The notes under the pieces are model-generated. The model was given only the letters and a program-made list of their open reading frames with translations. It ran no database searches and had not been told where the DNA came from. From an uncultured delta proteobacterium (GTDB taxonomy: Bacteria > Myxococcota_A > Polyangia > Palsa-1104): a stretch of 64,000 nt of DNA. This document shows, in pieces, positions 14,043-43,312 of the stretch (positions are counted from its first letter, which is position 1; each line of letters begins with the position of its first letter). A program made the position numbers and the translations under genes. The stretch spans positions 192,001 through 256,000 of the forward strand of contig CAWAWS010000015.1 in the NCBI GenBank assembly GCA_963785725.1, in the 5' to 3' direction.

Positions 14043-14055
14043 CGGCACCCGCGCT

Positions 14056-14070: not shown

Positions 14071-14144
14071 ACGGTTGACTGGGAGAAGACACCCCCGACG
14101 ACCCTTCGCGTTTACGTAACTCGGCGTACGACAAAGGTTTGCGA

Positions 14145-14161
14145 TCGGCGCGCGTTTTGCT
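14145..14161 (+). promoter_or_regulatory. Sigma54-type -24/-12 promoter for the pilin-Hint gene
   Basis: TCGGCGCGCGTTTTGCT with GG-N10-GC spacing, followed by RBS GGAGGG (14174-14179) and TTG at 14185. Confidence 0.6.
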
Positions 14162-14184
14162 CTTGGGCAAGCCGGAGGGTTTGC

Positions 14185-16056
14185 TTGACCAGATCAACAC
14201 GCATTCGGCGCTCTTCGCGGGGTGCCTCGGGGATCGAATACGTCATCGCGCTGGTGCTCGTCTGCATGACGGTGATCGTCGGCTATCGCGCGTTCGGCAA
14301 GCGCGTCCGCTGCCGCATGGGCCTGGCCACGTCGGCGATGGCGCTCGACGGCAGCAAAGGCGAGAGCTGCGACGACGACGACGGCGCGCTCGCGCAGAAT
14401 GGTCCCTCCGGCAACGGCGGCAACAGCAACGGCCCGGCCGGACCGTCGGTCAGCGTCGAGTGCGAGCCGTGCAAGGTCAAAGGGCCCAACGGCGAGCCAG
14501 GCTGCTTCGTCGCCGGCACCAGCGTCATGACCGAGGCTGGGCCGCGTCCGATCGAGACGATCGCCGTGGGCACGACGGTGTTGACGCGCGATCAGCTCGG
14601 CGGCGAGCTGGAGTGGCGACCGGTCTTGCGCACCTTCGTTCACGACGTGCATGCGCCTCTGGTGCGCCTCACGGTCGCGACCGCCGAAGGCGTCGAGGAC
14701 ACGCTGGTGGCGACCGCCAATCATCCGCTGCAGAGCGACGAGCGCGGCTGGGTCGCCGCGGGCGAGCTGGTGCCCGGCCGCGACCACCTCCTCGATGCCG
14801 ACGGCGAGCGGCTCGCGGTGCTCGACGGCGAGACGCTGTCGAGCAACGAGCGCGTCTACAACTTCGAGGTCGAAGAGGCGCACACCTACTATGTCGGCCG
14901 GCTGCGGGTCTGGGCGCACAACGATTGCACCAAGCTGCAGCCGCCGTCGGCGGACACGAACACCGGACCGACCGTCTTGCCGCCGACGCCGGGGCCGACG
15001 CCGTCTACCACGACGACGCCGCCGCCGTCGACGACGCCGACGACGACGCCGACGCCGTCTACCACGACGACGCCGCCCCCGCCGCCTTCGTCGTCGACCG
15101 GAACGACCGGCGAACGGAACGGGTCGAATCATCAGTATCCGCCGGCGCCGGCCACCACCGGCGGCGGGTCGGGCGGCAACGGTCCCGGCGGCAGTGGCTC
15201 GGCCGGAAGCGGCGGCTCGGGTGGCGGCAAGTCGAGCCCGAGCCAGACGGCTGAGAAGTACACGGGCCTCGGTCAGAACGGCATCGACGTGCTCAACGGC
15301 GGCTTCGACGCGGCGAACAAGGGCGGCAACGTGGTCGGCCAGTCCAGCTCGATCACCCAGGCCATCGGCGGCGGCCTCGGCCTCGCGAATCAGGGGCTCG
15401 GTCTCTACAACCGGCCCAAGCCCAATCCGTTGAACCCCGGCAATCCGCCGCCGCCCATCGACAAGTGGGGCTTGGCGGGCGACGGAATCGCCAACGGCGC
15501 CGACGTCGTCGGCGGCATCAGCGGCGCCGTGGGTGGCTTCACCGGCAACTCGCAGGCGTCGACCATCGGCAGCTGGGCCAGCAGCGTCGGCAACGGCGTG
15601 TCGTCGCTCAACGGATTCCGGCAGGCGTGGAACTCGTGGAACGACGGCGAGCGGCGCGAGTTCATCAAGTATCTGATCGGCGCGACCGCCGACGGGTTCG
15701 GCTCGGCGCAGAACGCCATGCAAGCGCTCGGTCTGGCCGGCACGACGCAGTCCAACCTGCAGATCACGTCCGGCGTCCTCGCGATCATCGCGGCCGGGCT
15801 CGAGCCCGACGGCGTGCTCGCCACCTGGTTCAACAACGGCATGAACGCGTGGCGCGGCAACCAGCCGCCGCCGCCGCCTCCGCCGACGCCGAACCCGGTC
15901 GGGCCGCCGCCGATTTCGCTGACGCCGCCGGACAGCCCGCCGCCGGCGCAGCTGGGACCGCCCGATCCCAACCATCTCCAGCCGCCGCCGGTGAACAACG
16001 ACCCGGGCAACACGCCGCGGCCGCCACCGACGATCATCATCACGCCGCCCAACTAG
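14185..16056 (+). CDS. Flp-type prepilin fused to a Hint (bacterial intein-like) domain, Pro/Thr linker, Gly-rich helical domain and Pro-rich tail (about 623 aa)
   Basis: MTRSTRIRRSSRG|ASGIEYVIALVLV (basic leader, G-1, E+5, Y+6); Hint from CFVAGT (14503) through ATANHP to VYNFEVEEAHTYYVG..WAHN (14922). Confidence 0.88.
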   Translation: MTRSTRIRRSSRGASGIEYVIALVLVCMTVIVGYRAFGKRVRCRMGLATSAMALDGSKGESCDDDDGALAQNGPSGNGGNSNGPAGPSVSVECEPCKVKGPNGEPGCFVAGTSVMTEAGPRPIETIAVGTTVLTRDQLGGELEWRPVLRTFVHDVHAPLVRLTVATAEGVEDTLVATANHPLQSDERGWVAAGELVPGRDHLLDADGERLAVLDGETLSSNERVYNFEVEEAHTYYVGRLRVWAHNDCTKLQPPSADTNTGPTVLPPTPGPTPSTTTTPPPSTTPTTTPTPSTTTTPPPPPSSSTGTTGERNGSNHQYPPAPATTGGGSGGNGPGGSGSAGSGGSGGGKSSPSQTAEKYTGLGQNGIDVLNGGFDAANKGGNVVGQSSSITQAIGGGLGLANQGLGLYNRPKPNPLNPGNPPPPIDKWGLAGDGIANGADVVGGISGAVGGFTGNSQASTIGSWASSVGNGVSSLNGFRQAWNSWNDGERREFIKYLIGATADGFGSAQNAMQALGLAGTTQSNLQITSGVLAIIAAGLEPDGVLATWFNNGMNAWRGNQPPPPPPPTPNPVGPPPISLTPPDSPPPAQLGPPDPNHLQPPPVNNDPGNTPRPPPTIIITPPN

Positions 16057-16129
16057 ATCTCATGCCGGCCGGAACGCGCGCAAGGCACGCGTTGACAGTC
16101 GCACGCCTTCGCGATCACACTTGGGTCAC

Positions 16130-17482
<1,353 letters not shown>

Positions 17483-19151: not shown

Positions 19152-19385
19152 TCAGTGCGACTGGCTGCAGACGAGGCCGATGCAGCCGTCGTCGGCAGGC
19201 TTGAGCTGCGTGTTGCTCGAGCCGGTGCATTCGGACGCGTGGTCGCCCGCCGCCATCTTGCAGCGCGCGATGCGGCCGAACTCGTAGACGACCTTCAAGC
19301 CGGCGATGGCGATGAACATGACGACGATGATCCACTCGACGGCGGCGGCGCCGCGCGTGCGGGCACGGAGCTGATGACGGGCCAT
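19152..19385 (-). CDS. Small Cys-containing Flp-like minor pilin (77 aa)
   Basis: GGAGG RBS; MARHQLRARTRG|AAAVEWIIVVMFIAIAGL; four Cys in the C-terminal half. Confidence 0.8.
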   Translation of the reverse strand: MARHQLRARTRGAAAVEWIIVVMFIAIAGLKVVYEFGRIARCKMAAGDHASECTGSSNTQLKPADDGCIGLVCSQSH

Positions 19386-19387: not shown

Positions 19388-20266
19388 TCAACCTCCCTTG
19401 GCGATGACGGCCAGGTCGACTTTCATGGGGTCGACTTGATCGATCGAGAGGATGACGGTGCGCGCGCCCTGGTCGAAGCGCATGGTGACGCTGGCGTTGG
19501 AGCTCTTGGCGAAGCGCGGATCCTCGACCCAGTCGTGCTGCTTCATGGCGAACGCCAGCTGCGTCGCGACGCCCGAGACCGAGCCCTGTCCTTCGTAGAC
19601 GCGCGTGCTCCACGGCTTGCCCTTCTCGTCGAGCGCCAACACACGCTGCAGACCGGGGAGGCGCGGCACGTTGGGGATGTCGCCGCCGTCGACGTCGACG
19701 CCGTGCGGCGGCATCAGCTTGTCGAGCGAGAAGCGCGTGTCGGTCCACAGCGTCAAAAAGCGCGTGCCGCCGCCCGGCTCTTTGTGCCACTGGACGAAGC
19801 GGACTTGGCCGATGTCGCCGATGCGATGGCTCTTCAAGAACTTGAGGTAGCGATCTTTCAAGCTCGCCAGTGACAAGTCTTTGCCGAAGTCGAAGGCCAC
19901 GAGGCCGCCTTCGTCGTCGGTGCCGAAGGCCAGCTCGGTCGGCGGCGCCTTCTTGCCCGTCTGCGCCGCGATCTTCCGCAGCGCGTCCTGCGAGCTCGCA
20001 TATTGATCGACGTAGAAGTCTTTGACGCGCGCGCCTTGGTGCGGCGTCGAGCCCACGGCCACGTGCAAGAGCTGACCGTTGATGGCGACGGTGCGCGGCT
20101 CTTCGGTGGTGCGCTTGTCGTCGAGATAGGGCGCCATGTTCTTGCCGAAGTTCAGAAAGCCGTCGAACACCGAGCCTTCGGCGGGGCGCGGCGTCAAGAC
20201 GAGCGCGGCGATGGGCGCGACCGCCGCGATGAACGTCGTCAAACGCAAGATCGGCTTCCACCTCAC
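19388..20266 (-). CDS. Exported hypothetical protein within the pilin operon
   Basis: N-terminal hydrophobic signal; coupled to both neighbours; no recognisable family motif. Confidence 0.75.
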   Translation of the reverse strand: MRWKPILRLTTFIAAVAPIAALVLTPRPAEGSVFDGFLNFGKNMAPYLDDKRTTEEPRTVAINGQLLHVAVGSTPHQGARVKDFYVDQYASSQDALRKIAAQTGKKAPPTELAFGTDDEGGLVAFDFGKDLSLASLKDRYLKFLKSHRIGDIGQVRFVQWHKEPGGGTRFLTLWTDTRFSLDKLMPPHGVDVDGGDIPNVPRLPGLQRVLALDEKGKPWSTRVYEGQGSVSGVATQLAFAMKQHDWVEDPRFAKSSNASVTMRFDQGARTVILSIDQVDPMKVDLAVIAKGG

Positions 20267-20772
20267 GGCTGCACCTCCAGCTCTTTGAACGCGAACGGCG
20301 TCATGACGTCGAGCAGCGAGCTGTCGGGCGTCGGCAGCTTGTCATTGCAGTGCAAGAACGTGCGGCCGGCGATCTCCTTCGACGTAAAGCCGTAGCCGCC
20401 TTGCTCTTTGGCGGCGGTGCGGCCGACGCGCGCGTCGATGCTCGACGTCGCCTCGAGGAACGAGCCGCGCGCCGCTTCCGGCAAGATGAGGTACGCGGCC
20501 ATCGTCTCGTCGCCGAGCGTGCCCAAGGAGGCGAGCGTCGCCGCCGAGATCGCGCTCGGCACCATCGTCGTGTCGCACTGACCCGACGTCGCGTGCGCCC
20601 AGGCTTCGGTGCGCGACTCGTGCAGGACCTGCTGCGCCATCAAATACTGAATGCGAAAGTGGTTGATGGCGGCCCACGTGAAGATGAGCAGCGGGCAGAT
20701 GATGGCCAGCTCGACCATGGCCGTGCCGCGTTGCCGGCGATTGCGAGACCGTCGCGCGCGTGTCGTCGTCAT
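20263..20772 (-). CDS. tadE: TadE/TadF-like pseudopilin (169 aa)
   Basis: MTTTRARRSRNRRQRG|TAMVELAIICPLLIF; TAATG overlap with the upstream gene. Confidence 0.82.
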   Translation of the reverse strand: MTTTRARRSRNRRQRGTAMVELAIICPLLIFTWAAINHFRIQYLMAQQVLHESRTEAWAHATSGQCDTTMVPSAISAATLASLGTLGDETMAAYLILPEAARGSFLEATSSIDARVGRTAAKEQGGYGFTSKEIAGRTFLHCNDKLPTPDSSLLDVMTPFAFKELEVQP

Positions 20773-21932
20773 TAGTGGATCCACACTTTGTCGAGGATGG
20801 CGTTCAACGGGCCGGCGGTGAGGAACTTGAGCGGACCGAAGTCTTTGGCCTGCGACAGGATGAGGCGCGCGCGCCAGTCCATGTGCCACAGGTCTTCTTC
20901 TTTGCTGCCGCCGTAGCCGTAGACGCTCGCCTCCGACGTCGCCAGCATCCACTTGGCCGTCGCTTCCGGCGCGTCGCCGTACTGCGAAGCGGCGGCGACG
21001 AGATAGGCGCGGCGATCGTCGGGCTTGGAGTCGTCGAGGAAGCTGACGGCCTTGATGCGCGCCGTCGTCTGCCAATCGGGCGTGAGGATCTGCGGGATGA
21101 CGCCGTATTCGCCGCCGCAGGTCTCGGCCGCGCCGATGGCCAACGCCGCCGGCGACAGGCCGGCGATGATGAGCTTGCCCTCCGGCGGAATCTCCTTCGG
21201 CAGCTGCAAGAGGCCGATGGGGCCGAACGCCAAGCCGTACTCCTCTTTCTGCGGCGACGGGCCGCACACTTGATTGGGCGCGCCGTCCATCGCCGGAATC
21301 ACGGGCTTAATCGGATCGAGCACGGTGACGAGGCCCGGCAAGCGCTTGGCGTAGGCGTCATTCATGCTGACCTCTTCGGCCTCGACGGCGACGAGGATGG
21401 CGCCGGTCTTCTCGAGCTCCTTGGCGGCGTTGGCGATGGTCTTGATGCGACCGGCGAGCTCGCTGGCGGCGGCCTCGTAGCGCGCGGCGATCTCCTCGGC
21501 GATGCCCGAGTCGACGATGGCGCAGTCGGGCGCGTCGCCGATGCAGTAGGTGCCGAGCGACGCGGCCTCGAGCGTGCCGATGGCGGCGATGAAGCCGATG
21601 ATGGCGCCGCCGAGCCCGTTGAGCGTGTAGACCATGGCCATGCCGCAGGCGACGGCGAGGTTGCACCACGCGATCGAGTTCAGCGTCTTGGCCTCGGCGG
21701 CGGCGCCGGCGAAGGCGGCCGCGTCGACCGCGGCCTGGATGGTCTCCTTCTGCATGTAGCGGCGGCCGACGGCGATGACGAAGAACACCAGCGCCGAGAC
21801 GAAGAGCATGCAGACGGCGTAGAGGATAGCCACGTGGCCGCGCTCGTCGCGGTGCAAGCGCACGAACAGGCGCTTCGTGACGCGGCTGCGCAGCCGACCG
21901 AGGAATCCCGACGTCGAAGGTTTGGCGCGCAT
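20772..21932 (-). CDS. tadG: TadG-like pilus tip protein
   Basis: RDERG|HVAILYAVCMLF..IAVGR....IQAAVDAAAFAGA Tad-domain motif; no E+5, as is typical of TadG. Confidence 0.82.
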   Translation of the reverse strand: MRAKPSTSGFLGRLRSRVTKRLFVRLHRDERGHVAILYAVCMLFVSALVFFVIAVGRRYMQKETIQAAVDAAAFAGAAAEAKTLNSIAWCNLAVACGMAMVYTLNGLGGAIIGFIAAIGTLEAASLGTYCIGDAPDCAIVDSGIAEEIAARYEAAASELAGRIKTIANAAKELEKTGAILVAVEAEEVSMNDAYAKRLPGLVTVLDPIKPVIPAMDGAPNQVCGPSPQKEEYGLAFGPIGLLQLPKEIPPEGKLIIAGLSPAALAIGAAETCGGEYGVIPQILTPDWQTTARIKAVSFLDDSKPDDRRAYLVAAASQYGDAPEATAKWMLATSEASVYGYGGSKEEDLWHMDWRARLILSQAKDFGPLKFLTAGPLNAILDKVWIH

Positions 21933-21933
21933 G

Positions 21934-22533
21934 TCAGATGATCTTCCGCGGGTTGAGCTCGGGGTTCGGTCGGCCCTGTTTCGTCAGCGTGTGCTGCGCG
22001 CGCAAAATCAGATAGCGACCGTCGCCGGGCGTGATGTTCGCTTTGTGCAAATCTTCCTGCGCCGCCGACGGCAGGTCGCTGATCGGCCCGCAGAAGTAGC
22101 GGCTCGCGATGGGCACCGTGCAGTGATAGGCGTAGACGACGCGCACGGTGATCTGCGCGTCGTACTGGTCGGTGCCGAAGCGGCTCTCGGAGATGATGAC
22201 GCCGGTGTTCTTCGACGCCTCGGCCCAGCCGCCGCCCTTGCCGAACGAGTCGGCGATGGAGTTGCCTTGCGGCGCGATCGGCAAGATGGCGTAGACGGCG
22301 GCGTCGCGGATCGACTCGTTGTGCGCTTGATGGCCGTTCTCCTCTTCGTCGGGCACGACGACGATGGCGGCGCGCGCCGCGGCTTGCGCCGCGTAGTGCA
22401 CCGTCAGCTTCGCCACCGATAGCAGCGCGAGCTGAATGACGCCCGTGAAGATCATCATGAACGGGATGATGGCGATGACGAATTCGACCGCCACCATACC
22501 GCGCGGTCGTGCAGCACTACGCAGGCGTCGCAT
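21934..22533 (-). CDS. tadE: TadE-like pseudopilin
   Basis: RPRG|MVAVEFVIAIIPFMMIFTGVIQLAL....VHYAAQAAARAA. Confidence 0.88.
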   Translation of the reverse strand: MRRLRSAARPRGMVAVEFVIAIIPFMMIFTGVIQLALLSVAKLTVHYAAQAAARAAIVVVPDEEENGHQAHNESIRDAAVYAILPIAPQGNSIADSFGKGGGWAEASKNTGVIISESRFGTDQYDAQITVRVVYAYHCTVPIASRYFCGPISDLPSAAQEDLHKANITPGDGRYLILRAQHTLTKQGRPNPELNPRKII

Positions 22534-22607
22534 GGGCGGCTCCGTTCCGAAGGCGCGACGGTCTCCCGTCGCGCCTTCGTGGCGAGCGTACGGTTGCTGG
22601 CTCGTTG

Positions 22608-22826
22608 TTACTCGAGGACCTGAACCGACGTGAAGTGCTGGTCGGCCGACGAGACGGCGCCCTTGAACTTCGAGCCGAACGCCTTGAACACGGCGATGCC
22701 GGTGATGGCGATGAAGATGAGGACGATGATGTACTCGACCGAGCTCGCACCCTTCTGCTTGTTGAGCTTGCGGGCGATCTTCTTCATCGAGCGGTTCTCC
22801 ATCTTGGCGAGCGCGAGGGTCTTCAT
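22608..22826 (-). CDS. flp: Flp major pilin (72 aa)
   Basis: AGGAG RBS; ..KLNKQKG|ASSVEYIIVLIFIAITGIAVFKAFG (Flp E+5/Y+6 motif). Confidence 0.9.
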   Translation of the reverse strand: MKTLALAKMENRSMKKIARKLNKQKGASSVEYIIVLIFIAITGIAVFKAFGSKFKGAVSSADQHFTSVQVLE

Positions 22827-22852
22827 GGTCGTTTCTCCTGGTTGTGTGAAAT

Positions 22853-23032
22853 TCACGGTAAGGGCAGCTCGGTCATGAACTCGATCCGATCGTGATACCC
22901 GAGCAAGTACCGACCGAGCGGGGCCAGCGCGATGCAGGCTCCGAACGTGACCAGCGTGAGGATGATCAGCCACTCCAACATGGCCGTCCCCCTCTGCCGC
23001 TCTCGCGTTCGAATCCGACCGAGCCGTTTCAT
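22853..23032 (-). CDS. Small Flp-like minor pilin (59 aa)
   Basis: MKRLGRIRTRERQRG|TAMLEWLIILTLVTFGACIAL..; ends ELPLP. Confidence 0.78.
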   Translation of the reverse strand: MKRLGRIRTRERQRGTAMLEWLIILTLVTFGACIALAPLGRYLLGYHDRIEFMTELPLP

Positions 23033-23350: not shown

Positions 23351-23400
23351 TTGGCACTCGAGCCAACGGAGCGCGGCAACGGCCGCGAAGTGTGGGGACC

Positions 23401-24176
23401 ATGAAGAAGCGTCTATTGATTGCCGTCGCCTTTGCGATCGTCTCGATGGTGTGCGGCTACATGTATATCGACGGCCTCGGGGCCGCGACCACCGGCGGCC
23501 GCAAGGTGCCGGTGCTGGTGGCGGCGGCGGAGATTCCGGCCGGCTCGCGCATCACGAAGGAGATGCTCGGGGTGCGCGAGATCCCCGAAGCCTACGTCCA
23601 TCCCGAGTCGATCACGGCCGGGCCGGCGGAAGAGGCGCGGCTCATCGGCCGGCCGCTCTTCGCCAAGCTCGCGCAAGGGCAGCCACTTTTATGGAGCGGC
23701 TTCGATGTGCAGAAGGCTGGGCCGCAGAAGCTGTCGGCCGGCATTCCGCGCCACAAGCGCGCGCTCACGCTGCCCATCGATCTGCAGGGCGGCTTCTCGG
23801 GCATGTTGCGCTCGGGCGACCACATCGACGTGCTCGGCACCTTCACCCAGGCGGCCAACCAGTCGCAGACGGTGACGCTGCTGCAGAACCTGGCGGTCTT
23901 GGCCGTGGGCGACATGCGCGGTGATGCCGAGGGGCCGACGCGCGGCTTCAACAGCGTCACCCTGGCCGTCGACCTCGACGAAGCCGAGCTGCTCGTGTTC
24001 GCGCAGCAGCGTGGCGCGCTCAGCTACGCCTTGCGCTCGGAAGGCGACTTCGAGACGGTGGCCGACATCACCGAGAAGAGCTTCGGCGACGTGCTCGACG
24101 TGCATCGCCGCCAGGCCGAGTACAAGCGCAACGCGGCTCCGTCGGCGGCGCCTGCCGCTCCGCGAGCGGGTGGCCA

Positions 24177-24180
<4 letters not shown>
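23401..24180 (+). CDS. cpaB: Flp pilus assembly protein CpaB/RcpC
   Basis: N-terminal TM; SAF domain VLVAAAEIPAGSRIT; KRALTLPID..GFSGMLRSGDHIDVL..LLQNLAVLAVG..ALRS. Confidence 0.93.
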
Positions 24181-25946
<1,766 letters not shown>

Positions 25947-26034
25947 GCGAGCGTAAGCGAGAGAACGTGAGCGTCCGGCCCGTAGGGCCAGCGGGTCGAC
26001 TGGCTTGTTCACGCTGCACCGACAAGGTGCACCG

Positions 26035-26892
26035 ATGAATCCGTCGATTTGGCTGTTACTCATGTTGGCGACGCTGGGCCTGTCGGTGTTCGGCCTCGTC
26101 GTGTTCGGCGGTCCCATCGTCGTCGCCTTCTTCGAGAGCCTGTGGGCCAAGTACGCGCGTTGGGCCGGCGGCGAGCTGAAGGTGCTGCACATGCCGATGA
26201 CGCCGGCCGCCTTCTTCGGTCGCCACGTGCTCGTCGTCCTCGGCACGATGTCGGTCGGCCTCATGATGACGACGCCGTGGAAGACCGCGATGCTGATGGC
26301 CGGCGCCGCGATCTCGCCGATCTTTTGGTTCAAGCGGCAGCGCTTCAATCGCCAGCAAGCCTTCAACGAGCAGCTCGATCCGGGCCTGCAGCTGATGGCG
26401 AACTCGGTGTTGGCGACGCAGAACCTCGTCGACGGCTTCGAGTCGCTGGCGAAGTACGGTCAGCCGCCGCTCAGCCAAGAGGCGGAGCTGTTCGTCAAAG
26501 AGCTGCGCATCGGCAACAGCATCGACGAAGCGATGGCCAACATGGCGCAGCGCTGCCACAACCGCAACGTCGACTCGGTCATCACGGCGCTCGCCATCGG
26601 TCGCCGCACCGGCGGCAACTTGCCGAAGGTGCTCGAGTCGACGGCCAAAGTGTTGCGCGAGACGATGCGCATCGAGGGCCTCATCGCCTCGAAGACGGCC
26701 GAGGGCAAGGCGTCGGGCGTCATCATGGCGGCGCTGCCGATCTTCTTCGCCGTCGTCATGTCGGTCGTCGATCCCGAGTGGATGGCGCCGCTCTACAACG
26801 ACGTCATTGGTAACTGCATCCTGGCAGGTGTCCTCGCGATGACGGTCGCGGGCGGCATGCTGATCCGCAAAGTGTCGACGATCGATGTTTAA
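26035..26892 (+). CDS. tadB: TadB inner-membrane platform protein (T2SSF family)
   Basis: FNEQL..GLQLMA, PPLSQE, IGRRTGGNLPKVLE, TAEGKASG, multiple TM segments. Confidence 0.92.
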   Translation: MNPSIWLLLMLATLGLSVFGLVVFGGPIVVAFFESLWAKYARWAGGELKVLHMPMTPAAFFGRHVLVVLGTMSVGLMMTTPWKTAMLMAGAAISPIFWFKRQRFNRQQAFNEQLDPGLQLMANSVLATQNLVDGFESLAKYGQPPLSQEAELFVKELRIGNSIDEAMANMAQRCHNRNVDSVITALAIGRRTGGNLPKVLESTAKVLRETMRIEGLIASKTAEGKASGVIMAALPIFFAVVMSVVDPEWMAPLYNDVIGNCILAGVLAMTVAGGMLIRKVSTIDV

Positions 26893-26912
26893 CCGTCGTC
26901 TCGAAATCGTGG

Positions 26913-27857
26913 GTGAACGTCATGGGTGAGCTCCTGCAAAGCTTGACGACGAATCCGTCGCTGTATTGGCTCTTCGGCGCCATCGTGTGTATGGGCGTGG
27001 CCGCCTTCGTCATCGTCATGGCGGCGGTGCCGAAGCCGCGCGCGCTGACGCACCTCATGGGCTATCGCGCGACGGCACGCCGCGAGGGCCTCGAGCAGAA
27101 CCAGTTCCTGAAGATGGCGTGGCCGCTCGTCGAATTGGGCGCGCAATATTCGTCGGGAATCGCCATGCCGGAGTGGCGGCAGAGCATGGCCAAGCTGCTG
27201 CGCGACTCGGGCGCGCCGCTCGGCCTCGACGTCGACGAGCTGGTCGGCGTCATCTTCACCAGCACAGTGGCGCTGCTCGGCCTCGCGTTCGTGGTGGCGC
27301 AGCTGCGCGGCTTCGGCTTCGGCATCTACATCTTGGCGGCGTTCATCGGCGTCTGCTTGCCGTTCATGTGGCTGAGCGAGCAGGGCAAAGAGCGCTTCAA
27401 GTCGATCAACCGCGGCCTGCCGCAGGCGCTCGACCTCGTCGTCATGGCCATGGGCGCCGGCCTCGACTTCACCGGCTCGTTGCGCAACGTCGTCGAGCGC
27501 TGGACCGACAAGAAGGACCCGATGTTCCTCGAGCTCAGCCGCTTCTTGCACGAGCTCAGCCTCGGCAAGACGCGCCGCGAGGCGCTCGAAGACTTGGCCG
27601 TGCGCGCGCCCACCGAGCTCGTGCGCACCTTCGTCGCCAACGTCGTGCAGGCCGAGCAGCGCGGCACGCCGCTCGTCGAGATCTTGGCGATTCAGGCCGA
27701 CGTCGCGCGCACGCGCCGCTTTCAGACGGCCGAGAAAATAGCCGGTCGCGCCGGCGTCATGGTGCTTCTGCCGCTCATGTTAATCTTCATGGCAACCATC
27801 TTGGTGCTCTTCGGTGGTCTCATCGTCAAGGGCATCCGCGGGGAGCTCACGTCGTGA
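26913..27857 (+). CDS. tadC: TadC inner-membrane platform protein
   Basis: LPQALDLVVMAMGAGLDF, LGKTRREAL, QAEQRGTP, AEKIAGRA..LLPL. Confidence 0.92.
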   Translation: MNVMGELLQSLTTNPSLYWLFGAIVCMGVAAFVIVMAAVPKPRALTHLMGYRATARREGLEQNQFLKMAWPLVELGAQYSSGIAMPEWRQSMAKLLRDSGAPLGLDVDELVGVIFTSTVALLGLAFVVAQLRGFGFGIYILAAFIGVCLPFMWLSEQGKERFKSINRGLPQALDLVVMAMGAGLDFTGSLRNVVERWTDKKDPMFLELSRFLHELSLGKTRREALEDLAVRAPTELVRTFVANVVQAEQRGTPLVEILAIQADVARTRRFQTAEKIAGRAGVMVLLPLMLIFMATILVLFGGLIVKGIRGELTS

Positions 27858-28783
27858 CGCCTGAACGCGCAGTCCCGGCGCCGGCCGTCGTGCCTTCGGT
27901 GCCTTTCGAGGTCCACGTCGGCACCGTCGACGGACCGATCCGCTCGTACCAGTTCGACGCCGAGCGCATCCTCATCGGCCGCGCCAGCGACGTCGATCTG
28001 CGGGTCGCGCACTCGGCGATGGCGCGCCATCAGTTCATCATCGAGCGCATCCTGCTCGACGGCGGACCGGCGCGCTTCCGCATCGTCCTCGTCGGCGGCA
28101 CCAACCCGACCTATCTGAACGGGCAGCCGGCCGTCGAAGGCAGCTTGCAGCCGGGCGAGGAGATCGCCGTCGGACCGCTGCGCATCTCGGTGCACTCGCC
28201 GAAGAAGCGCAAAGCGGCGGCCAAGGCCTCGGGCGGCGTCCGCGAGAAGGTCGTGCTCATCGCCGGCATCCTCGGCATCGGCCTCGTCTGCTGGTGGATG
28301 TTCGGCGACTCGGATCCGCCGCCGCAGGTGAACCCGGCCGAAGTCGACGCGCCCCTGTTCCATTCGCTGCCGCCGTTGTCGTGCCCGACGTCGGACGCCT
28401 GCGCGGCGCGCGCTCGCGAGCAGTACGCCAAAGGCCGGCAGTACGAAGACCTCGTGCAAGGCGACATCGGCAACCTGTATCGCGCGTCGATCGCGTTCGC
28501 CTACGCGGCGCAGCTGCGGCAGGCGTCGAACCAGCCGATGCCGGAGATCGCCGACGCCACCGGGCGCGTCGATCGCGACGCGCGCAAGGCGCAAGAGATC
28601 CTCGAGGACGCGCGCTTCCAGCTGCGGCGCGCGCTCGCGGCCGGTGACGGCGACCGCACCGCGCATTCGCTGGCGGTCATTCAGCAGCTCGTGCCCGAGC
28701 CGGGCCATCCGATTCGGCTCGGCCTCGACAAGATTCGCCGCGACCTGGCCAAGGACAAAGACAAGGACAAGGACGATAAATGA
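27854..28783 (+). CDS. FHA-like domain + TM + periplasmic helical protein
   Basis: GTGA overlap with tadC; ILIGRASDVDLRV..MARHQ..GTNPTYLNG; TM VVLIAGILGIGLVCWWMF. Confidence 0.8.
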   Translation: MTPERAVPAPAVVPSVPFEVHVGTVDGPIRSYQFDAERILIGRASDVDLRVAHSAMARHQFIIERILLDGGPARFRIVLVGGTNPTYLNGQPAVEGSLQPGEEIAVGPLRISVHSPKKRKAAAKASGGVREKVVLIAGILGIGLVCWWMFGDSDPPPQVNPAEVDAPLFHSLPPLSCPTSDACAARAREQYAKGRQYEDLVQGDIGNLYRASIAFAYAAQLRQASNQPMPEIADATGRVDRDARKAQEILEDARFQLRRALAAGDGDRTAHSLAVIQQLVPEPGHPIRLGLDKIRRDLAKDKDKDKDDK

Positions 28784-29892
28784 GCCACGGTCCGCAGCGC
28801 ATCCCGGACGCGATCTTCCAGCAGACGCTGGTCGGGTTCCTAAAGCCGATCGAGAAGTTTCTGGCCGACGATCGCGTCTCGGAGGTCATGATCAACGGGG
28901 CGCGCGAGATCTACATCGAGCGCGGCGGCAAGCTGGAGCTCTCCGGCGCCGAGTTCCCGTCCGACCACGCGCTCGAGACGGCGGTGCGCAACATCGCGCA
29001 GTTCGTCGGCAAAACCGTCGACGCCGAGCGGCCGATCTTGGACGCGCGCCTGCCCGACGGCAGCCGCGTCTGCGCCGTCTTGCCGCCGGCCGCGCGGCGC
29101 GGCATCACCGTCTCCATCCGCCGCTTCCCGAAGTCGCGCCTGACGGTGCAGGATCTCGTCAACTACGGCGCCGTCTCGGAAGGCGCGCTGGCGTTCTTGA
29201 AGCTGTGCGTCGAGATGAAGCGCAACATCCTCGTCGCCGGCGGTACCGGCTCGGGCAAGACGTCGCTGTTGAACGCGCTGTCCTCGTTCGTGTCGGCGGA
29301 CGAGCGCGTCGTCGTCATCGAGGACTCGTCCGAGGTGCAGCTGCAGCAGCCGCACGCCGTCTACTTGGAAGCGCGCCCGCCCGATCACAAAGGCCAGCAC
29401 GCGGTAACCATCCGCGACCTCTTGCGGGCGACGCTGCGACTGCGCCCCGACCGCATCATCGTCGGCGAGTGTCGCGGTGGTGAGGCGCTCGACCTCGTGC
29501 AGTCGATGACCTCCGGCCACGGCGGCTCGATGTCGACCGTCCACGCGACCCATCCGCACGACACGGTTCAGCGTTTGGAGACGTTGTGCCTGATGTCGGA
29601 GGTGGAACTGCCCTTGCATGCTTTGCGCGGACAAGTGGCCTCCGCCGTCAACATGATCGTGCAGACGAACCGTCTCAACGACGGCAGCCGCAAGATCACC
29701 GACATCGTCGAGTGCCGCGGCCTCGACGCCAAAGGCTTCTACGATCTCAATCCGCTGTTCGAGTTCCGCCAGACCGGGGTCGATCCGAAGACGAGCAAGA
29801 TTCGCGGCGCGTTGGTCGCGACCCGCAACCCGGTCAGCTTCGCCGAAGAGCTGGAGGGCCACGGCGCGACGCTGCCCGAGGAGATGATGTAA
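28780..29892 (+). CDS. cpaF: Second CpaF/TadA family ATPase (no FHA)
   Basis: SEVMING, DARLPDGSRV, GGTGSGKT, IEDSSE, LRLRPDRIIVGECRGGEA, SGHGGSMSTVHA. Confidence 0.93.
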   Translation: MSHGPQRIPDAIFQQTLVGFLKPIEKFLADDRVSEVMINGAREIYIERGGKLELSGAEFPSDHALETAVRNIAQFVGKTVDAERPILDARLPDGSRVCAVLPPAARRGITVSIRRFPKSRLTVQDLVNYGAVSEGALAFLKLCVEMKRNILVAGGTGSGKTSLLNALSSFVSADERVVVIEDSSEVQLQQPHAVYLEARPPDHKGQHAVTIRDLLRATLRLRPDRIIVGECRGGEALDLVQSMTSGHGGSMSTVHATHPHDTVQRLETLCLMSEVELPLHALRGQVASAVNMIVQTNRLNDGSRKITDIVECRGLDAKGFYDLNPLFEFRQTGVDPKTSKIRGALVATRNPVSFAEELEGHGATLPEEMM

Positions 29893-31907
29893 TGCAGGAC
29901 GAAGAAGAAAAAACGTCGATGTTTCGGCAGAATAAGCCGATCGAGCCGGAGCGCACCGTGGTCGCGGCGCCGCGTCAGGTGGCGCGCCTGAAGGCCACGC
30001 TCGAAGACGGCATGCAGACGTTTTTGCCGCTCACGTCCGCGCCCGTGACGATGACGATCGGCCGCGATCCGTCGTGCGGCTGGTACCTGCAGGACTTGAG
30101 CGTCTCGCGCATTCACGCCTCCATCCGCTGGAGCGGCGTCGCCTTGTCGATCGAGGATCACGGCTCGAGCGGCGGCACGTTCGTCGCCAACCGCCAGGTG
30201 GGGACCACCCCTTGCCTGGTGAGGCCGGGCGACTCAGTCCGGGTCGGCGACGCCATCTTCGTCCTCGAGCTCACGAGCGGCATCGCGTCCAAGGATGTCG
30301 AGCAGACGCGCATGGTGCCGAACCCGTCGCCGATGTCGTACGCGGTGACGCCGGCGCCGTCGCGTCATCAGAAGCCGGTGGAGATTCCGCTCGGCACCTC
30401 GGCCGACGACGAGCGCACGGCGTTCTCGTCCGTCGCCGCGCCGCACGCGCGAGAGGGCCGTCAGGCGGCGCACGACGAAGAGGAGCGTACGGCGTTCTCG
30501 AAGGTGGCGACGCCGGCGCGCGGGCAGCGGGCGCACGCCGAGCTGCCGTCGATCGCCGCGCTCGCCGACGAGGAGAAGACGGCGTTTCAGGTCGAGCTGC
30601 CGAACGTCGTGGTGGCGTCGGACGCGACGGAGTCCGAGGTCGAGCTGCCGATCGCCGAATCGCGGCCGCAGCGCGTCGCGCCGGCCAAGCCGGTGGCGCA
30701 CGCCAAACCGGCCCCGAAGCCTGCGCCGCCGGTGCAGCAGACGCGGCCGACCACGCCGCCGAAGGCGATCCCGGCGGTCAAGCCGGCGCCGGTCAGGCCG
30801 GTCGCGCAGCCGAAGCCGGTCGCGGCCGAGCAGCAGACGACCGAGGCCGAAATTCCGCTGCCGGAAGCGGCGCCGTGGAGCAAGCCGTCGAGCGAGCAGA
30901 CGAAGACGGCGGCCGAGCTGCCCTTGCCGGGCGCACGCGCGACGCAGCCGCGCACCGAAGCCGAAGTGCGGCTGCCGCCCGAGCAGGCGCGCACGGCGAC
31001 CAAGACGCTGCCCGCCCATCAGCTGCCGACCGAGGCCGAGATTCCGCTGCCGGAAGCCAAAGCGCGCGCGCCCTTGCCGAAGACGGAGGCCCATATTCCG
31101 CTTCCCGCCGTCGCCGCCGCTTCGCGGACGGCGTCGACGGAATCGACGGTGGCGCCGGCTTCGCCGATCGCGATTCCGGTGCGCGCGCCCGATCACGAGC
31201 CGCTCGTCTACGTGCCCGAGAGCGACGTGCTGGCTCCGACGGAGGTGACGCGCAGCTGGGCCGTCGAGACGGCGCTGGCGAAGCCGAAGGAGGGCCTGTT
31301 CGGCGCGCGTCGCGGCACCGTGAAGTCGGGCATGCCGGTCAAGAAGTCGGCCGAAGGCAAGAGCGCGATCGGCAAGCTGGCGCAGCTGGCCAAGGGCGCC
31401 GCCAAAGGCGCCAAGACGACCGCCAAGACAGCGAAGCCGTCCCAGGCGGAGTCGACGGCGAAGACATGGACGTTGTCGAGCCAGCGCAAGCGCATCTTGC
31501 TGCTCGCGGGACCGGCCCTCTTGGCGATCGTCACCTCGGCGTCGGCGTGGATGCAGGCGCCGGCGGACGCGGCGAGCGAGGCCAAGCCGGCCGGCGCCAA
31601 GCACGCCAAAGCGCATCCGGCGAACGGCGCGGCGGTCGCGAACGGCGGCGCGGCCAACGGCGCGGCTGGCAATGGAGCCGGCGGCGACGGCAACGCGCAG
31701 CCCGCGGATCCGACGGCGGCGGTGGCGCCGGCCGCGGTCGCGCCCGTCGATTCGGCCGCGCGCGACGAGCTGCTCGCCGGCGCCATTCGCGCCTACAGCG
31801 ACGGCAATCGCGCCGAAGCGTTGAACATCTTCCGGCGCATGGGACCGAACGATCCGACCGGACGCGCGATGGTGCACATCATCACGCTGCAAGCCGAGGG
31901 ACAATAA
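29892..31907 (+). CDS. FHA protein with long repetitive disordered linker and C-terminal TM/periplasmic helix (about 671 aa)
   Basis: TAATG coupling; IGRDPSC..SVSRIHA..DHGSSGGTFV; repeats (D/E)ExTAF and TEAEIPLP; TM ILLLAGPALLAIV. Confidence 0.82.
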   Translation: MQDEEEKTSMFRQNKPIEPERTVVAAPRQVARLKATLEDGMQTFLPLTSAPVTMTIGRDPSCGWYLQDLSVSRIHASIRWSGVALSIEDHGSSGGTFVANRQVGTTPCLVRPGDSVRVGDAIFVLELTSGIASKDVEQTRMVPNPSPMSYAVTPAPSRHQKPVEIPLGTSADDERTAFSSVAAPHAREGRQAAHDEEERTAFSKVATPARGQRAHAELPSIAALADEEKTAFQVELPNVVVASDATESEVELPIAESRPQRVAPAKPVAHAKPAPKPAPPVQQTRPTTPPKAIPAVKPAPVRPVAQPKPVAAEQQTTEAEIPLPEAAPWSKPSSEQTKTAAELPLPGARATQPRTEAEVRLPPEQARTATKTLPAHQLPTEAEIPLPEAKARAPLPKTEAHIPLPAVAAASRTASTESTVAPASPIAIPVRAPDHEPLVYVPESDVLAPTEVTRSWAVETALAKPKEGLFGARRGTVKSGMPVKKSAEGKSAIGKLAQLAKGAAKGAKTTAKTAKPSQAESTAKTWTLSSQRKRILLLAGPALLAIVTSASAWMQAPADAASEAKPAGAKHAKAHPANGAAVANGGAANGAAGNGAGGDGNAQPADPTAAVAPAAVAPVDSAARDELLAGAIRAYSDGNRAEALNIFRRMGPNDPTGRAMVHIITLQAEGQ

Positions 31908-31909
31908 TC

Positions 31910-32626
31910 ATGATGCGTACGACGTTGCAGCTGGCGCTGTTGGCGGCGGTTTCGGCTTGGGTGGGCTGCACGCCGCCGCCGCCGCCGCGGCCGTTCGACA
32001 TCGAGGTCAAGGTCCACACCGACGAGAACGAGCCCGTCGCCGGCGCCGCGGTCAGCGCCGGCGATCGCGCGCTCGGCACCACCGACGCCAATGGCCGGCT
32101 GCTCTTGCATTTGCGCATGAACGAGGGCGCGCACGTGGCGCTCAACGTCGAGCCGCCGCAAGGCTACAAGACGATCGACGAAGCGCGGCCGCTCGTGCTG
32201 CACCGCATTTCGCGGATGGTCGACGGCGCGGCCAAGGAAGTGCCGATGGAGCACGTCGTGCGCTTCGCGCAGCTGCAGCGGCGTTATGCCGTGCTCGTCG
32301 ACGTCGGGCAGCCGAACATGGTCGTCGAGGCGTTCGGCGCGAAGCAGGCGGTGACGAATTCCAAGGGTGTGGCGTCGTTCGTTTACAACGGCACGCCCGG
32401 CGACGAGCTGGCCGTGCGCGTGAGCAGCGACGGTCATCCCGAGCTGGCGCCGAAAGTGGTGGCGAACAGCTTCGTGCTCGCGCCGCGCTCGGAGGCGTAT
32501 CTGGTGCAAGGCCGCTTCGAGCCGGCGGCGACGACGCGTTCGCGCGCGCCGCTGTCGTCGGTCGTGGTCGTGCACAAGTACGTGCATCCGAAAGCGCCGA
32601 AGAGCACCGGTCCGCATCGCCTGTAG
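31910..32626 (+). CDS. Predicted lipoprotein with beta-sandwich (carboxypeptidase-regulatory-like) domains
   Basis: MMRTTLQLALLAAVSAWVGC lipobox; EPVAGAAV..LGTTDANG. Confidence 0.75.
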   Translation: MMRTTLQLALLAAVSAWVGCTPPPPPRPFDIEVKVHTDENEPVAGAAVSAGDRALGTTDANGRLLLHLRMNEGAHVALNVEPPQGYKTIDEARPLVLHRISRMVDGAAKEVPMEHVVRFAQLQRRYAVLVDVGQPNMVVEAFGAKQAVTNSKGVASFVYNGTPGDELAVRVSSDGHPELAPKVVANSFVLAPRSEAYLVQGRFEPAATTRSRAPLSSVVVVHKYVHPKAPKSTGPHRL

Positions 32627-33204: not shown

Positions 33205-36200
33205 CTATTCGGCCTGACGGAGCGGGTGGTGAATGTGATGTGCCGTCGACGAGTGGTGCTCGAGCCGCGCCTGCGCCGGATGCGGGAACTTGTGCGGACC
33301 GGAGTGCGTGGCCGTCGCCGTGCCGCTTTCGCTGTCCATCTGCGTCGCCATCTTCTCGAGCTGTTGCCGCGCCGCCGGCGTCAGCGACGGGTTGTTGAGC
33401 GCCCGCCGCAGCTGCGCCGCCGACGCCTGGCGAATCGCGCGCTGCTGCGGCGTCAGCTCCGCCGTCGGCGCCGCCAATCCGGGCGCGCCGGCCGCGGCCG
33501 TCTGCAGCTGGCGGGCGCGGATCTTCTTGCCCTTTTTCTTGAGCTCCTCGCGCTCGGCCTGTTCGCGCGTGCCGACGTAGTTGCCGTTGCGATCGTAGAG
33601 GCCGGTGCCGTTGTAGTGGCCGGCGGAGTCGTAGCCGCCGGTGTAGACGCCGCCCGCGCTCGTGCTGCGGGCGCCCGCCACTTCGGTCGTCGGGCGCGAG
33701 GCGACGATGACGCCGTCGCGCGGCTGCAGAGCGGTGGCGGGACCGAGCGCGCCCGGACGCGTCGCGACGACGCCGTTGGGGTCGCGCGGCGTCACCTGGC
33801 CGGCGGGCAGCGTGCCGATCGTCGGGCCGTAGCTGCGGGCGCCGGGCGAGCTCGAAGCCACCGGCTGGAGCTGCGTGCCGACGATGGGGTTGCCGTAGAT
33901 CGGACGTCCCGACGGGTCGGTGCCGACGACGACGGGGCCCGGGCCGAAGCCGCCCGGCGGATAGCTGCCGGCGACGACGGGGCCCGGTCCGAGCGTGCCC
34001 GGACCATAGATGGGCGCGCCGGTCGCCGGATCGACGCCGACGACGACGGGACCCGGTCCGCCGGCGACGGGCGCGACGGGGCTGGCGTAGATGGGCGCGC
34101 CCGTCGTCGGATCGAAGCCGACGACGACCGGCGCCGTCGCGCCGTTCGGCAGCGTCGCCACCGGGTTGCTATAGATGGGCTGGCCCGTCACCGGATCGGT
34201 GCCGACGACGACGGGACCCGGACCGCCCGGCAGTGTCGCGATGGGATTGGCGTAGACCGGATTTCCCGTCGTGGGATTGAGGCCGATGACGACGGGTCCA
34301 GGCGACGTGCTGCCGGGCACGGTCGTGATCGGGTTGCCGTAGATAGGATTGCCGGTGGTCGGATCGGTGCCGATGACGACCGGTCCCGACGACGAGCCGC
34401 TGGGCAGCGTGCCGACGGGGCTGGCATAGACAGGCGCGCCGGTGGTCGGATCGGTGCCGACGACGACGGGACCGGGCGAGCCCGGTTGCGTCGCGATCGG
34501 ATCGCCGTAGACGGGCGCGCCGGTGGTCGGATCGGTGCCGATGACGCCGGGGCTGGGACCGAAGCCGCCCGTCGTCACAACGGGCGCGCCGGTGGCCGGA
34601 TCGGTGCCGACGATGACCGGGCCCGGACCGAGCGGGTTCAGCGGATCGGTGCCGCCGACGACGGGGCCGGGTCCGAGCGGGCCGAGCGGGTTGAGCGGCG
34701 TGACCGGTTCGCTGCCCGTTCCGTCGCCGCCGGCGCTGCCGGAACCACCGGCGCTGCCAGTGCCGCCCGCGCTGCCGCTGGCGGTGCCGCCCGCGCTGCC
34801 GCTGGCGGGATCGCCGGAGCCGCCGGCGTTGCCACTGCCGCCGGCACTGCCGGAGCCGCCTGCGCTGCCAGTGCCGCCGGCGCTGCCGCTGGCGGGATCG
34901 CCGGAGCCGCCCGCGTTGCCGGAACCGCCCGCGTTGCCTGCGCCGCCTGCGCTGCCAGAACCGCCTGCGGAACCGGTGCCGCCTGCGCTCGAGGGATCGC
35001 CGGTGCCGCCCGCGTTGCCGGAGCCGCCTGCGCTGCCAGTGCCGCCTGCGCTGCCGGTGCCGCCCGCGTTCGACGGATCGCCGGAGCCGCCTGCGTTGCC
35101 CGCGCCGCCGGCATTGCCGGTGCCGCCTGCGCTGCCAGTGCCACCCGCGCTGCCGCTGGCGGGGTCGCCGGTGCCGCCCGCGTTGCCGGAACCGCCTGCG
35201 TTGCCGGCGCCGCCCGCGTTGCCGCCTGCGCCGCCGCTCGCGGGATCGCCGCCGCCTGCGCCGCTGGCTCCACCGCCGCCGCCTGCGCCGCTGGCTCCAC
35301 CGCCGCCGCCGCTGCCGCCGGGATCATTCGAACCCGAGCCGGTCACGCTCGGCGGCGTCACCGTCGGGCCAGTGCTCGTCACCGTCGGGCCAGTCACCGT
35401 CGGGCCGCTGCCGGTCGCGGTCGGTCCGGTGACGACGGGGCCGGTGCCGGTGACGACGGGGCCGGTCACGGTCGGATCGGAGCCGGTCACGATCGGGCCG
35501 GTGACGACGGGGCCGGTGCCGGTCACCGTCGGGCCGGTCACGGTCGGGCCGGTGCCGGTGACGACCGGGCCGGTCACGGTCGGGCCCGTGCCGGTCGCGG
35601 TCGGGCCGGTGACGACGGGACCGGTGCCGGTGACGATCGGGCCGGTCACGGTCGGGCCGGAGCCGGTCACGGTCGGACCGGTGACGACGGGGCCGGTGCC
35701 GGTGACCGTCGGGCCGGTGACGACGGGGCCGGTGCCGGTGACGACGGGGCCGGTGACCGTCGGGCCGGTTCCGGTCGCGGTCGGGCCGGTCACGATTGGG
35801 CCTGTGCCGGTGACGACCGGGCCGGTGACGACCGGGCCGCTGCCGTTGACGGTCGGGCCGGTGACGACAGGGCCGTTGCCGTTGACGCTCGGGCCGTTGA
35901 CGGTGGGACCGCTGCCGGTGGCCGTCGGGCCGGTCACCGAGCCCGAGCCGGTGGCCGTCGGGCCGGTGACGACGGGGCCATCGCCGTTGACGGTCGGGCC
36001 GGTGACGACGGGACCGCTGCCGTTGACCGTCGGGCCGGTGACGCCGCCGCCGTTGCCGTTCACCGACGGGCCGTTGACGTTGCCACCGCCGACGTTGACA
36101 CCGCCGCCGCCGACGTCGACCGAGCCGTTGAACGAAGGACCGCTGTAAGCGCCGCCGCTGAAGTTGATGCTGCCGCCGCTGATGGTGCCGGCGCTCAAGT

Positions 36201-41932: not shown

Positions 41933-41934
41933 TC

Positions 41935-43301: not shown

Positions 43302-43312
43302 TGGAGCACCCG

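Follow-up and report, generated by a model that had tools for sequence, protein, structure and literature searches.

Tad pili serve in adhesion and surface sensing, and in myxobacteria they also take part in prey killing by toxins that the available text of the two reports leaves unidentified (PMC8460266, PMC12075869). The Kil pili, which have variable tips, wrap or penetrate prey, and their toxin is stated there to be unknown (PMC12075869). Among polymorphic toxins, known toxin-immunity pairs include barnase and barstar, ADP-ribosyl cyclase (ARC) and Imm74, REase and Imm49, and deaminase and SUKH (PMC3482391). Toxin release by a Hint domain is treated as expected, not proven, in the accessible parts of PMC7738311 and of the umbrella-toxin preprint, and in type A bacterial intein-like (BIL) domains cleavage dominates and splicing is possible (PMC4031507). 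Here, a stretch of 64,000 nucleotides from an uncultured member of the Polyangia (contig CAWAWS010000015.1, positions 192,001 to 256,000; hereafter the window) carries a gene at 14185..16056 (+) in which a Flp-type pilin start, a Hint domain and a tail at the C-terminus are joined. Judged from its sequence, the focal protein is likely a polymorphic toxin (probability about 0.68), whose pilin start would lead it into a Tad pilus and whose Hint domain would free a membrane-damaging tail.

The focal protein begins with the leader MTRSTRIRRSSRG, followed by ASGIEY, a hydrophobic helix, a linker with four cysteines, the PT-HINT domain, an Asp-Cys pair, a Pro/Thr/Gly linker, a Gly/Ala-rich region and a Pro-rich end. 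The preliminary description had proposed a prepilin leader RRSSRG/ASGIEY with a hydrophobic helix, and both are present. The basic leader occupies aa 1-13, with Gly(-1) as its last residue, in the sequence and in the paralogue alignment (14185..14223, +), and would be cut between G13 and A14; the Flp-type pilin helix, recognized by profile comparisons, spans aa 14-52 (14224..14340, +), with E18 as E+5, Y19 as Y+6 and a Kyte-Doolittle value of 2.28 over aa 14-32. Tyrosine at +6 is a mark of Flp pilins. The basic leader, this tyrosine, the hydrophobic helix and G/XXXXE, the prepilin cleavage motif (PMC12075869), together give the focal protein the features of a Flp (type IVc) prepilin. In hhalign, a profile built from six paralogues of the source genome matched the short Flp pilin of the window (97.1%, E = 6.4e-11) and the 77-aa minor pilin at 19152-19385 (96.7%), each figure being a single pairwise comparison between hydrophobic helices, and profile matches to Tad pilins in the PDB were weak (8u1k, E = 0.032; 8u2b, E = 0.072). 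Among the paralogues, only the one on contig C4 showed the Pfam family Flp_Fap (28.4 bits, cut-off 32.2, E = 1.4e-6); the family member P0118 passes the cut-off with 33 bits, and two members carry the source annotation "Flp pilus assembly pilin Flp". Across the family, a G/A-xxxx-E motif with a hydrophobic run occurs in 69 of 84 members, and EY in 60 of them. A classical Flp pilin of 50-80 aa, all-helical, was rejected for the focal gene, which encodes a 623-aa multidomain fusion led by a Flp module.

The PT-HINT or type A BIL domain extends over aa 107-246 (14503..14922, +), with C107, T177-x-x-H180 and H245-N246. It matches Pfam PF07591 with E = 9.8e-18 (65.2 bits, cut-off 27.7), and the profile matches PDB entries 2lwy (E = 4e-30) and 8w20 (E = 8.9e-19). 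C107, T177, H180, H245 and N246 are invariant across the six paralogues, and the TxxH block is kept in 84/84 family members. The intact Hint domain with Cys1, TxxH, terminal HN and Asp at +1 that had been read from the letters alone is thereby upheld. At the junction itself the Asp was correctly placed, and a cysteine at +2 had been overlooked. With Cys1, block B TxxH, a terminal His-Asn and no nucleophile at +1 (D247), the domain has the characters of a type A BIL, and canonical intein splicing is unlikely because the focal +1 residue is Asp. Among 85 members, the +1 residue is Cys in none, Ser in one and Thr in eight. Three members (P0004, P0006, P0045) bear two Hint domains, and in P0004 a separate tail follows each, a tandem arrangement of double warheads.

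The gene is a single 623-aa open reading frame (ORF) with no internal stops. A ribosome-binding site, GGAGG (14174..14178, +), lies 6 nt 5' of the TTG at 14185. Formally, the frame has no stop from 13381 onward and there overlaps the upstream TPR gene that ends at 14042; a start at 13381 was rejected because third-position GC, 0.84-0.94 for the TPR-gene frame upstream of 14042 and 0.76-0.96 for the focal frame from about the TTG on, assigns the intervening stretch to the TPR gene. The ribosome-binding site and TTG start originally proposed thus stand, with the coding switch falling near the TTG. The concern that an indel might have joined separate pilin and Hint genes was addressed with public contigs: those of one run (X1) cover 13900-14606 with 19 substitutions and no gaps, and those of a second run from a separate study (X2) cover 14359-14745 with 11 substitutions and no gaps. 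These pieces cross the pilin-Hint junction, and none covers the whole gene. Because gap-free contigs from two public studies cross the junction, pilin and Hint belong to one gene; an assembly artefact was rejected on this ground and on the existence of a family with the same layout. Among the best-supported X1 variants listed, 27 fall within the gene; 21 are at third positions, and the affected codons comprise 19 synonymous and seven non-synonymous ones. A 434-nt X1 contig, about 94% alike, links 14038 to 16090 through 56 other letters, so that the empty site is flanked by the kinase-TPR gene on one side and by the sigma-54 activator on the other; a related strain or species therefore lacks the gene, which is an accessory insertion. 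In the strain variant P0153 the tail is nearly identical, and most differences fall in the linker. The public runs holding the focal sequence are soil metagenomes, and no RNA datasets are among the holders listed. Together with two family proteins labelled Polyangia bacterium, this would point to an uncultured soil member of the Myxococcota as the source.

In a profile search of 1.84 billion representatives, the best 150 matches were examined, so that the family total is larger than reported here. Of these, 87 share the pilin-Hint-tail layout, 69 recognized by a pilin HMM and 18 added because their match starts near the profile start. Dropping three cut records left 84 members, and leaving out three double-Hint members and three more cut ones left 78 for cysteine counts. 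The preliminary description had suggested checking whether the regions after HN vary between homologues, and they do: the N-terminal module is common to all 3240 pairs of 81 members, and the tail to only 40. Even among the 74 pairs with N-module identity of at least 55%, tails are related in six. The 81 tails form 58 clusters, of which 47 are singletons. Twenty-one of the 87 tails exceed Pfam cut-offs for toxin enzymes and ten more give weak matches, the families comprising ADP-ribosyltransferase (ART), RNase, HNH/endonuclease, M91 peptidase, Gln deamidase and DXD glycosyltransferase; three tails carry other names (Stv, DUF4116, GGDEF).

Downstream genes point the same way. In 14 of 27 complete members from other genomes a small co-oriented ORF comes next, two of these ORFs looking like shadows, and nine of 13 scanned next ORFs match immunity-type families. 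Barstar appears four times, always after RNase-like tails and once below the cut-off, and the remaining matches are Imm74 (after an ADP-ribosyl cyclase), Imm49, CdiI_N, DUF4265 and DUF6714, of which we take the last two to be immunity proteins. P0100, L194 and L205 are pilin-cyclase-like proteins with or without a Hint domain, and Imm74 follows L194 and L205. Fusions lacking a Hint domain are likewise paired: lipase with an ankyrin lipoprotein, cyclase with Imm74, and deaminase with SUKH-3. The first of these pairings, as read from the genes, fits with action in the periplasm.

Some members lie within tad operons. In one genome (G264) the gene order is Flp-Flp-A24-[TadE-Hint-Ntox21]-CdiI-TadG-TadF-X-CpaB-secretin-CpaF, and in another (G442) it is CpaF-TadB-TadC-FHA-CpaF-[pilin-Hint-Ntox16]-DUF6714. 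In G001 and G004, a pilin-cargo fusion occupies the last slot of the tip operon, where the window has its 77-aa pilin. At the level of the family, a conserved N-terminus, variable tails, toxin families and downstream immunity genes are all found, as in polymorphic toxins, and the best reading of the family is a polymorphic toxin system with a Tad pilin as its trafficking domain. The focal gene would be classed with them by architecture, as a member without an immunity gene. The central proposal of the preliminary description, a pilus-borne protein that sheds its own C-terminus, gains support from the variable tails, the toxin-immunity pairs and the members inside tad operons. Its scope was understated: a whole family exists in which the Hint domain is optional, and the cysteine pattern and a shared sigma-54 motif had been missed.

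Named members belong to Pendulispora rubella, P. albinea, P. brunnea and Polyangia metagenome-assembled genomes (MAGs), and family loci were located in MAGs of Myxococcales, Polyangiaceae and Kofleriaceae. Genome searches scored 15-22 candidates per genome, and four in the phylum sample, so that misses are likely. The distribution is patchy. Pilin-Hint matches were found in seven of 81 genomes of the family of G441 and in two of 121 genomes of the class sample; a pilin-plus-Hint match was found in none of 14 genomes of the focal genome's own family, and, with 22 candidates scored per genome, none of the 81 genomes in the family that includes the Archangium-labelled G638 gave a pilin-spanning match. 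A scan with a DNA pattern gave ten stretches and no pilin-Hint fusion, a locus search with P0072 one distant locus, and a word-based search with A3 four proteins. Members are scattered, with up to about 20 per genome, and no orphan cassette arrays were seen at the loci inspected; G491 alone has ten pilin-Hint matches and at least 11 Hint-less pilin fusions. Fourteen pilin-tail genes without Hint were noted in G491 (L205-L215) and G522 (L221-L223), some with a PT-TG-like spacer by eye. In the same genus as the focal genome, L225, L226, L228, L230, L231 and L232 (G001, G003, G004) are pilin-Cys-pair-tail genes without Hint, two of which carry Gly-rich hydrophobic tails and close a second tip operon.

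The source genome (G000) carries six PT-HINT genes, all of which start with the pilin and cysteine linker. The N-modules of the paralogues are 39-67% identical to that of the focal protein, and the six tails are mutually unrelated. The tail of the C22 paralogue matches the papain-fold toxin family PF15644 (25.6 bits, cut-off 24.1), and the other paralogue tails have no assigned family. The L009 tail (G000:C4:160349-161950, +) has a GH...NC order with no Pfam match, an order presumably resembling that of permuted NlpC/P60 papain-like enzymes; P0038 and P0039 look alike. The L011 tail (G000:C20:214490-216244, -) has a YRG...E-G...SE pattern that also occurs in P0007, P0157 and P0158, and its neighbours in the ESM Atlas are ART-type clusters at 0.81-0.84, below 0.9 and thus a lead only; it is a candidate for a new ART or NADase family.

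A sigma-54-type -24/-12 motif, GG-N8-TTGC, lies at 14147..14160 (+), 24 nt 5' of the focal start codon, and may act as a promoter; we take this consensus to be that of sigma-54. GG-N8-TTG[C/T], first spotted by eye in these six related genes, precedes six of six paralogues (five strict, one TTGT), ending 13-26 nt 5' of the start, vs 155 of 3222 background genes. Because the six genes share ancestry and the motif was first noticed by eye, its recurrence in other genomes counts more, where the strict motif occurs within 150 nt upstream of 14 of 41 pilin fusions vs two of 41 on the opposite strand. The motif is missing upstream of the genes for Flp, TadE and secretin. The next gene, an FHA and sigma-54 activator by domain search and not an immunity protein (16121..17482, +), may be connected to this upstream motif.

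A second shared feature is the distribution of cysteines. The Gly/Pro linker between helix and Hint domain (14341..14502, +) follows C43 at the end of the helix with C62, C93 and C96, which by their counts would form pairs. In members related by descent, the number of cysteines between helix and Cys1 is even in 84/84, as would be expected of disulfides formed outside the cytoplasm. In 77 of 78 members the Hint body is free of further cysteines, and in 63 of 78 an odd number follows Cys1. The extra cysteine lies within eight residues of HN in 47 of these 78, in the last seven residues in 16, in both places in four and in neither in 11; where the tail has a single cysteine (n = 39), it falls within 8 aa of HN in 30 and in the last 7 aa in nine, with 7% expected there. 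Hint-less pilin fusions have an even count in 18 of 20. A linker-to-tail disulfide as a general rule was ruled out, the linker parity being even whatever the state of the +2 cysteine. In the focal protein, D247 (+1) and C248 (+2) lie at 14923..14928 (+), and C248, the tail's only cysteine, is a candidate disulfide partner of C107. Disulfides on catalytic cysteines gate inteins (PMC4031507, PMC6195587). The simplest reading of these counts, to which we give an even chance of being real, is a bond between Cys1 and the tail cysteine (C107-C248) that keeps the nucleophile blocked and the tail tethered up to the point of reduction; it would offer an answer to what stops PT-HINT domains from cutting before the toxin meets its target. 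Non-pilin PT-HINT toxins also have an odd count after Cys1 in 53 of 71, and the latch may be general to PT-HINT toxins; an extra cysteine at the C-terminus only is commoner in the pilin family (16/78 vs 4/71 non-pilin controls).

The tail that would be released consists of a flexible linker, first Pro/Thr and then Gly/Ser (aa 249-350; 14929..15234, +), whose length differs among strains, an orphan cargo (aa 351-560; 15235..15864, +) and a Pro-rich end with the stop codon (15865..16056, +). The cargo, first described as globular-looking, proved to be Gly/Ala-rich and helical with no evident globular enzyme; its amphipathic to weakly hydrophobic helices make it a candidate membrane-active toxin. 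Composition and position lead us to prefer a membrane-damaging tail over a non-toxic display or entry module, a tentative choice held at somewhat less than even odds. Against 40 relatives, the tail gave one match (E = 0.004), which contains stops; phmmer over all fetched proteins and loci gave no homologue, PDB sequences gave only two designed repeat proteins, and in the ESM Atlas the best score was 0.86, with colicin pore clusters at the chance level of 0.78-0.80. It is also unlike the hydrophobic tail of L181.

The proposed course of action would begin with transcription from the sigma-54-type motif observed upstream, probably upon a contact or phosphorylation signal. The protein would insert into the membrane with its tail outside the cytoplasm and be cut at G13/A14 by one of the two A24 peptidases of the genome. 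In the periplasm, disulfides C43-C62 and C93-C96 would form, perhaps also C107-C248, which at the even odds given above would hold as a latch until a reducing milieu is reached. The protein would then become a minor or tip subunit of the genome's only Tad machine, a step that the observed gene orders make fairly probable. Cyclization of Asn246 and cleavage at Cys1, the reaction described for type A BIL domains and compatible with the residues observed, would free the tail. Killing would be enzymatic in many relatives, and for the focal tail its composition tentatively suggests membrane damage.

A number of observations weigh against the reading of a pilus-borne toxin. Concerning the pilin part, Pfam Flp_Fap (PF04964) gives no match for the focal protein, nor does it for the genome's own short Flp; the canonical motif is missing in 15 of 84 members, three of them N-terminally cut records and the rest with a shorter spacing or with T, Q, S or D in place of E+5; and the majority of members, including five of the six paralogues, lie away from tad genes. 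Concerning toxicity, 56 of 87 tails have no toxin-family match, most members show no evident translocation domain for entry into a target cytoplasm, and 13 of the 27 relatives have no small co-oriented ORF next to them. None of the six genes of the source genome has an immunity-like ORF next door, and no immunity gene lies 3' of the focal gene, an absence that might be explained by a target different from the producer, or by topology and latch acting as protection. The focal tail has no family in Pfam, NCBIfam or PHROGs; a word-based search with aa 350-565 over 7047 candidates of 342-1091 aa returned only its own cluster; a single-sequence AlphaFold model gave seven helices at pLDDT 38; and over 19 residues the hydropathy of the tail reaches no more than 1.46. 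The gene is missing from a related strain, and two of the six paralogues (L007 and L008) look broken. Cysteines near HN occur in 64 of 71 non-pilin PT-HINT controls (L013-L085), so that the latch is not specific to pili, and common descent means that the significance of the cysteine statistics, like that of the promoter motif, is overstated.

Regarding the two broken paralogues, L007 (G000:C15:37975-39530, -) has a frame shift soon after HN, beyond which its tail goes on in a different frame and has Cys at the end; its relative P0008 is intact, and L007 reflects either an assembly error or recent inactivation. The stop-less tail of L008 (G000:C7:896434-899007, -), which has no cysteine, runs into convergent genes including a phage-baseplate/VgrG OB-fold gene (PF04717), and was possibly cut by an insertion or rearrangement.

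Alternatively, the pilin helix might be merely a membrane anchor or export tag, with the Hint domain cutting in the periplasm and the free toxin leaving through the Tad secretin, another secretin or vesicles; exit through the Tad secretin would be piston-like, as in type II secretion, and the toxin would never be on the filament. The presence of four secretins and two A24 peptidases in the genome and of most genes outside tad clusters suits such a route, as do three members in G522 with a plain hydrophobic N-terminus instead of a pilin and the loss of E+5 in some others. However, most members retain G(-1), E+5 and Y+6 (EY in 60/84), none of which a plain anchor needs, a TadE-Hint-toxin takes the place of the TadE tip pilin within an operon (G264), and the odd-cysteine pattern suits a tail that stays attached after export; on balance this explanation is improbable, and loading of the toxin onto the pilus is preferred.

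It is a good deal less probable again that the family is toxic and the focal tail is not, serving on the pilus as an adhesive, a spacer or a membrane-entry helper, or being a decaying cassette. A tail with no homologue, catalytic motif or immunity gene would be in keeping with this, and a few relatives bear non-toxin names (Stv adhesin, DUF4116, GGDEF), but the mostly synonymous variants and the stability of the tail in P0153 while the linker varies speak against decay, the intact Hint domain ahead of the tail against lasting display, and the toxin-like tails of the paralogues against a non-toxic role in general. Splicing, in which the Hint domain would excise itself and ligate pilin and tail, either by aminolysis or with the tail cysteine serving as nucleophile, is the most remote of the three and very hard to credit. 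The product would be the same as that of the Hint-less fusions, type A BIL domains can splice (PMC4031507), toxin types are shared between members that have a Hint domain and those that lack it, and a single cysteine stands beside the junction in most members; yet the +1 nucleophile is missing in 76 of 85, a far C-terminal cysteine in 16 of 78 is easier to reconcile with a disulfide tether than with a nucleophile for splicing, and splicing would give nothing beyond the Hint-less fusions that already exist. A pilus-borne toxin released by cleavage remains the preferred reading of the focal protein.

The Tad machinery of the window was originally described as adjacent to the focal gene, which is inexact, since the cluster begins 3.1 kb downstream. 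Its tip operon (19388..23032, -) encodes two Flp-like pilins, TadE, a TadG-like and a TadF-like protein and a conserved gene, and is the only TadE/F/G set of the genome; the 77-aa minor pilin (19152..19385, -), the last gene of the tip operon, has the pattern RCKM...C...CxGxVC seen in the focal linker. The conserved gene (19388-20266, -; 292 aa) has no Pfam match and follows TadF in every tip operon seen; it shows 34-43% identity in relatives of the same family and is also present in G264, G522 and G022. The motor operon (23392..32626, +) comprises CpaB, the genome's only one, FHA-CpaF, TadB, TadC, an FHA protein, a second CpaF and another FHA protein; the two CpaF genes are at 24177 and 28780, one of them with an N-terminal FHA domain. 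A Hint-less pilin fusion of 1182 aa (33205..36753, -), which contains long repeats (VTGP, GSAGG) and is charged at its C-terminus, has no Pfam or PHROG match. Contig C4 holds a short secretin, a TPR lipoprotein and an A24 peptidase.

Elsewhere in the window, the Ser/Thr kinase genes at 11513-14042 (+) and 17419-18999 (-), which flank the focal gene, both appear frame-shifted, with kinase and TPR parts in different frames and a separate short ORF at 17541-17843; these frame changes in both genes suggest indel errors in the assembly. A cluster at 40742-48001 (+) with imelysin, di-haem oxidoreductase, a second imelysin, a TonB receptor and HTTM/VKGC genes is of the iron-uptake type. The genome also has two FHIPEP export-gate genes (G000:C29:50385-52328 and C7:204920-206809), one of which might belong to a needleless type III system like that of Myxococcus.

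In the literature searched, which mostly lies outside subscription papers, no description of a pilin-Hint-toxin family was found apart from one passing phrase in PMC12605009, which names Flp pilins once among the carriers of ADP-ribosyl cyclase toxin domains. The Pendulispora albinea protein WP_394825747 appears in a figure legend of that paper, and we infer from the accessible portion that it is the Flp one. The terms pilin, pilus, Flp and TadE were not found in the first 300,000 characters (of 357,715) of PMC3482391, nor pilin, pilus, Flp and Tad in the main texts of PMC13483458 and the Nachmias preprint, nor pilin, pilus and Flp in PMC12356396; the nine supplements of PMC13483458 gave no Flp_Fap, TadE, pilin or Pendulispora. 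The family brings in a trafficking route that the polymorphic-toxin surveys searched do not contain, and would be a new means of delivery should pilus loading hold true. The covalent fusion of pilin and toxin, with immunity genes, offers a direct and testable link between Tad pili and toxin delivery. With 47 singletons among 81 tails, the family also offers new toxin domains, and the named members in cultured Pendulispora species make experiments possible. In its widest form, and with slightly less than even confidence, the proposal from these sequences is that Polyangia Tad pili are contact-dependent toxin delivery devices, in which swappable pilin-toxin subunits in the filament or tip, disulfide-latched, are driven into or up against the target cell and released there on reduction, with room for about 20 warheads per cell and a latch general to PT-HINT toxins.

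Compared with the Kil system (PMC8460266, PMC12075869), the locus shares, as far as the available text of these reports extends, split clusters, an FHA-fused CpaF (as KilF), several FHA proteins, a second cluster in which a short secretin adjoins an A24 peptidase, TadE/F/G-like tip pilins and extra Flp minor pilins. In contrast, Kil has one ATPase and four tip sets, whereas two CpaF and one tip set are found here; KilK and KilO are plain Flp adapters, and neither Kil paper mentions Hint or intein in that text. Fusions of the focal type are probably not the Myxococcus Kil toxin, because none was matched in the 81 genomes of the Archangium-labelled family at 22 candidates scored per genome. In PilB/PilC of S. 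sanguinis and TcpB-TcpF of V. cholerae, as outlined in PMC12075869, a pilin helix likewise carries or docks a functional module; those modules are adhesins or a non-covalent factor, whereas here they are covalent, swappable, toxin-like and placed behind a putative autoprotease. The closest likeness in overall design is to the PT-HINT polymorphic toxins (PMC3482391), including MafB (PMC7738311) and Streptomyces UmbC (PDB 8w20), which in the accessible accounts have a conserved trafficking N-terminus, a HINT domain before a variable tip, an immunity gene next and the same toxin-immunity pairs. The difference suggested by the present comparison is that the trafficking domain here would be a cleavable Flp/TadE pilin.

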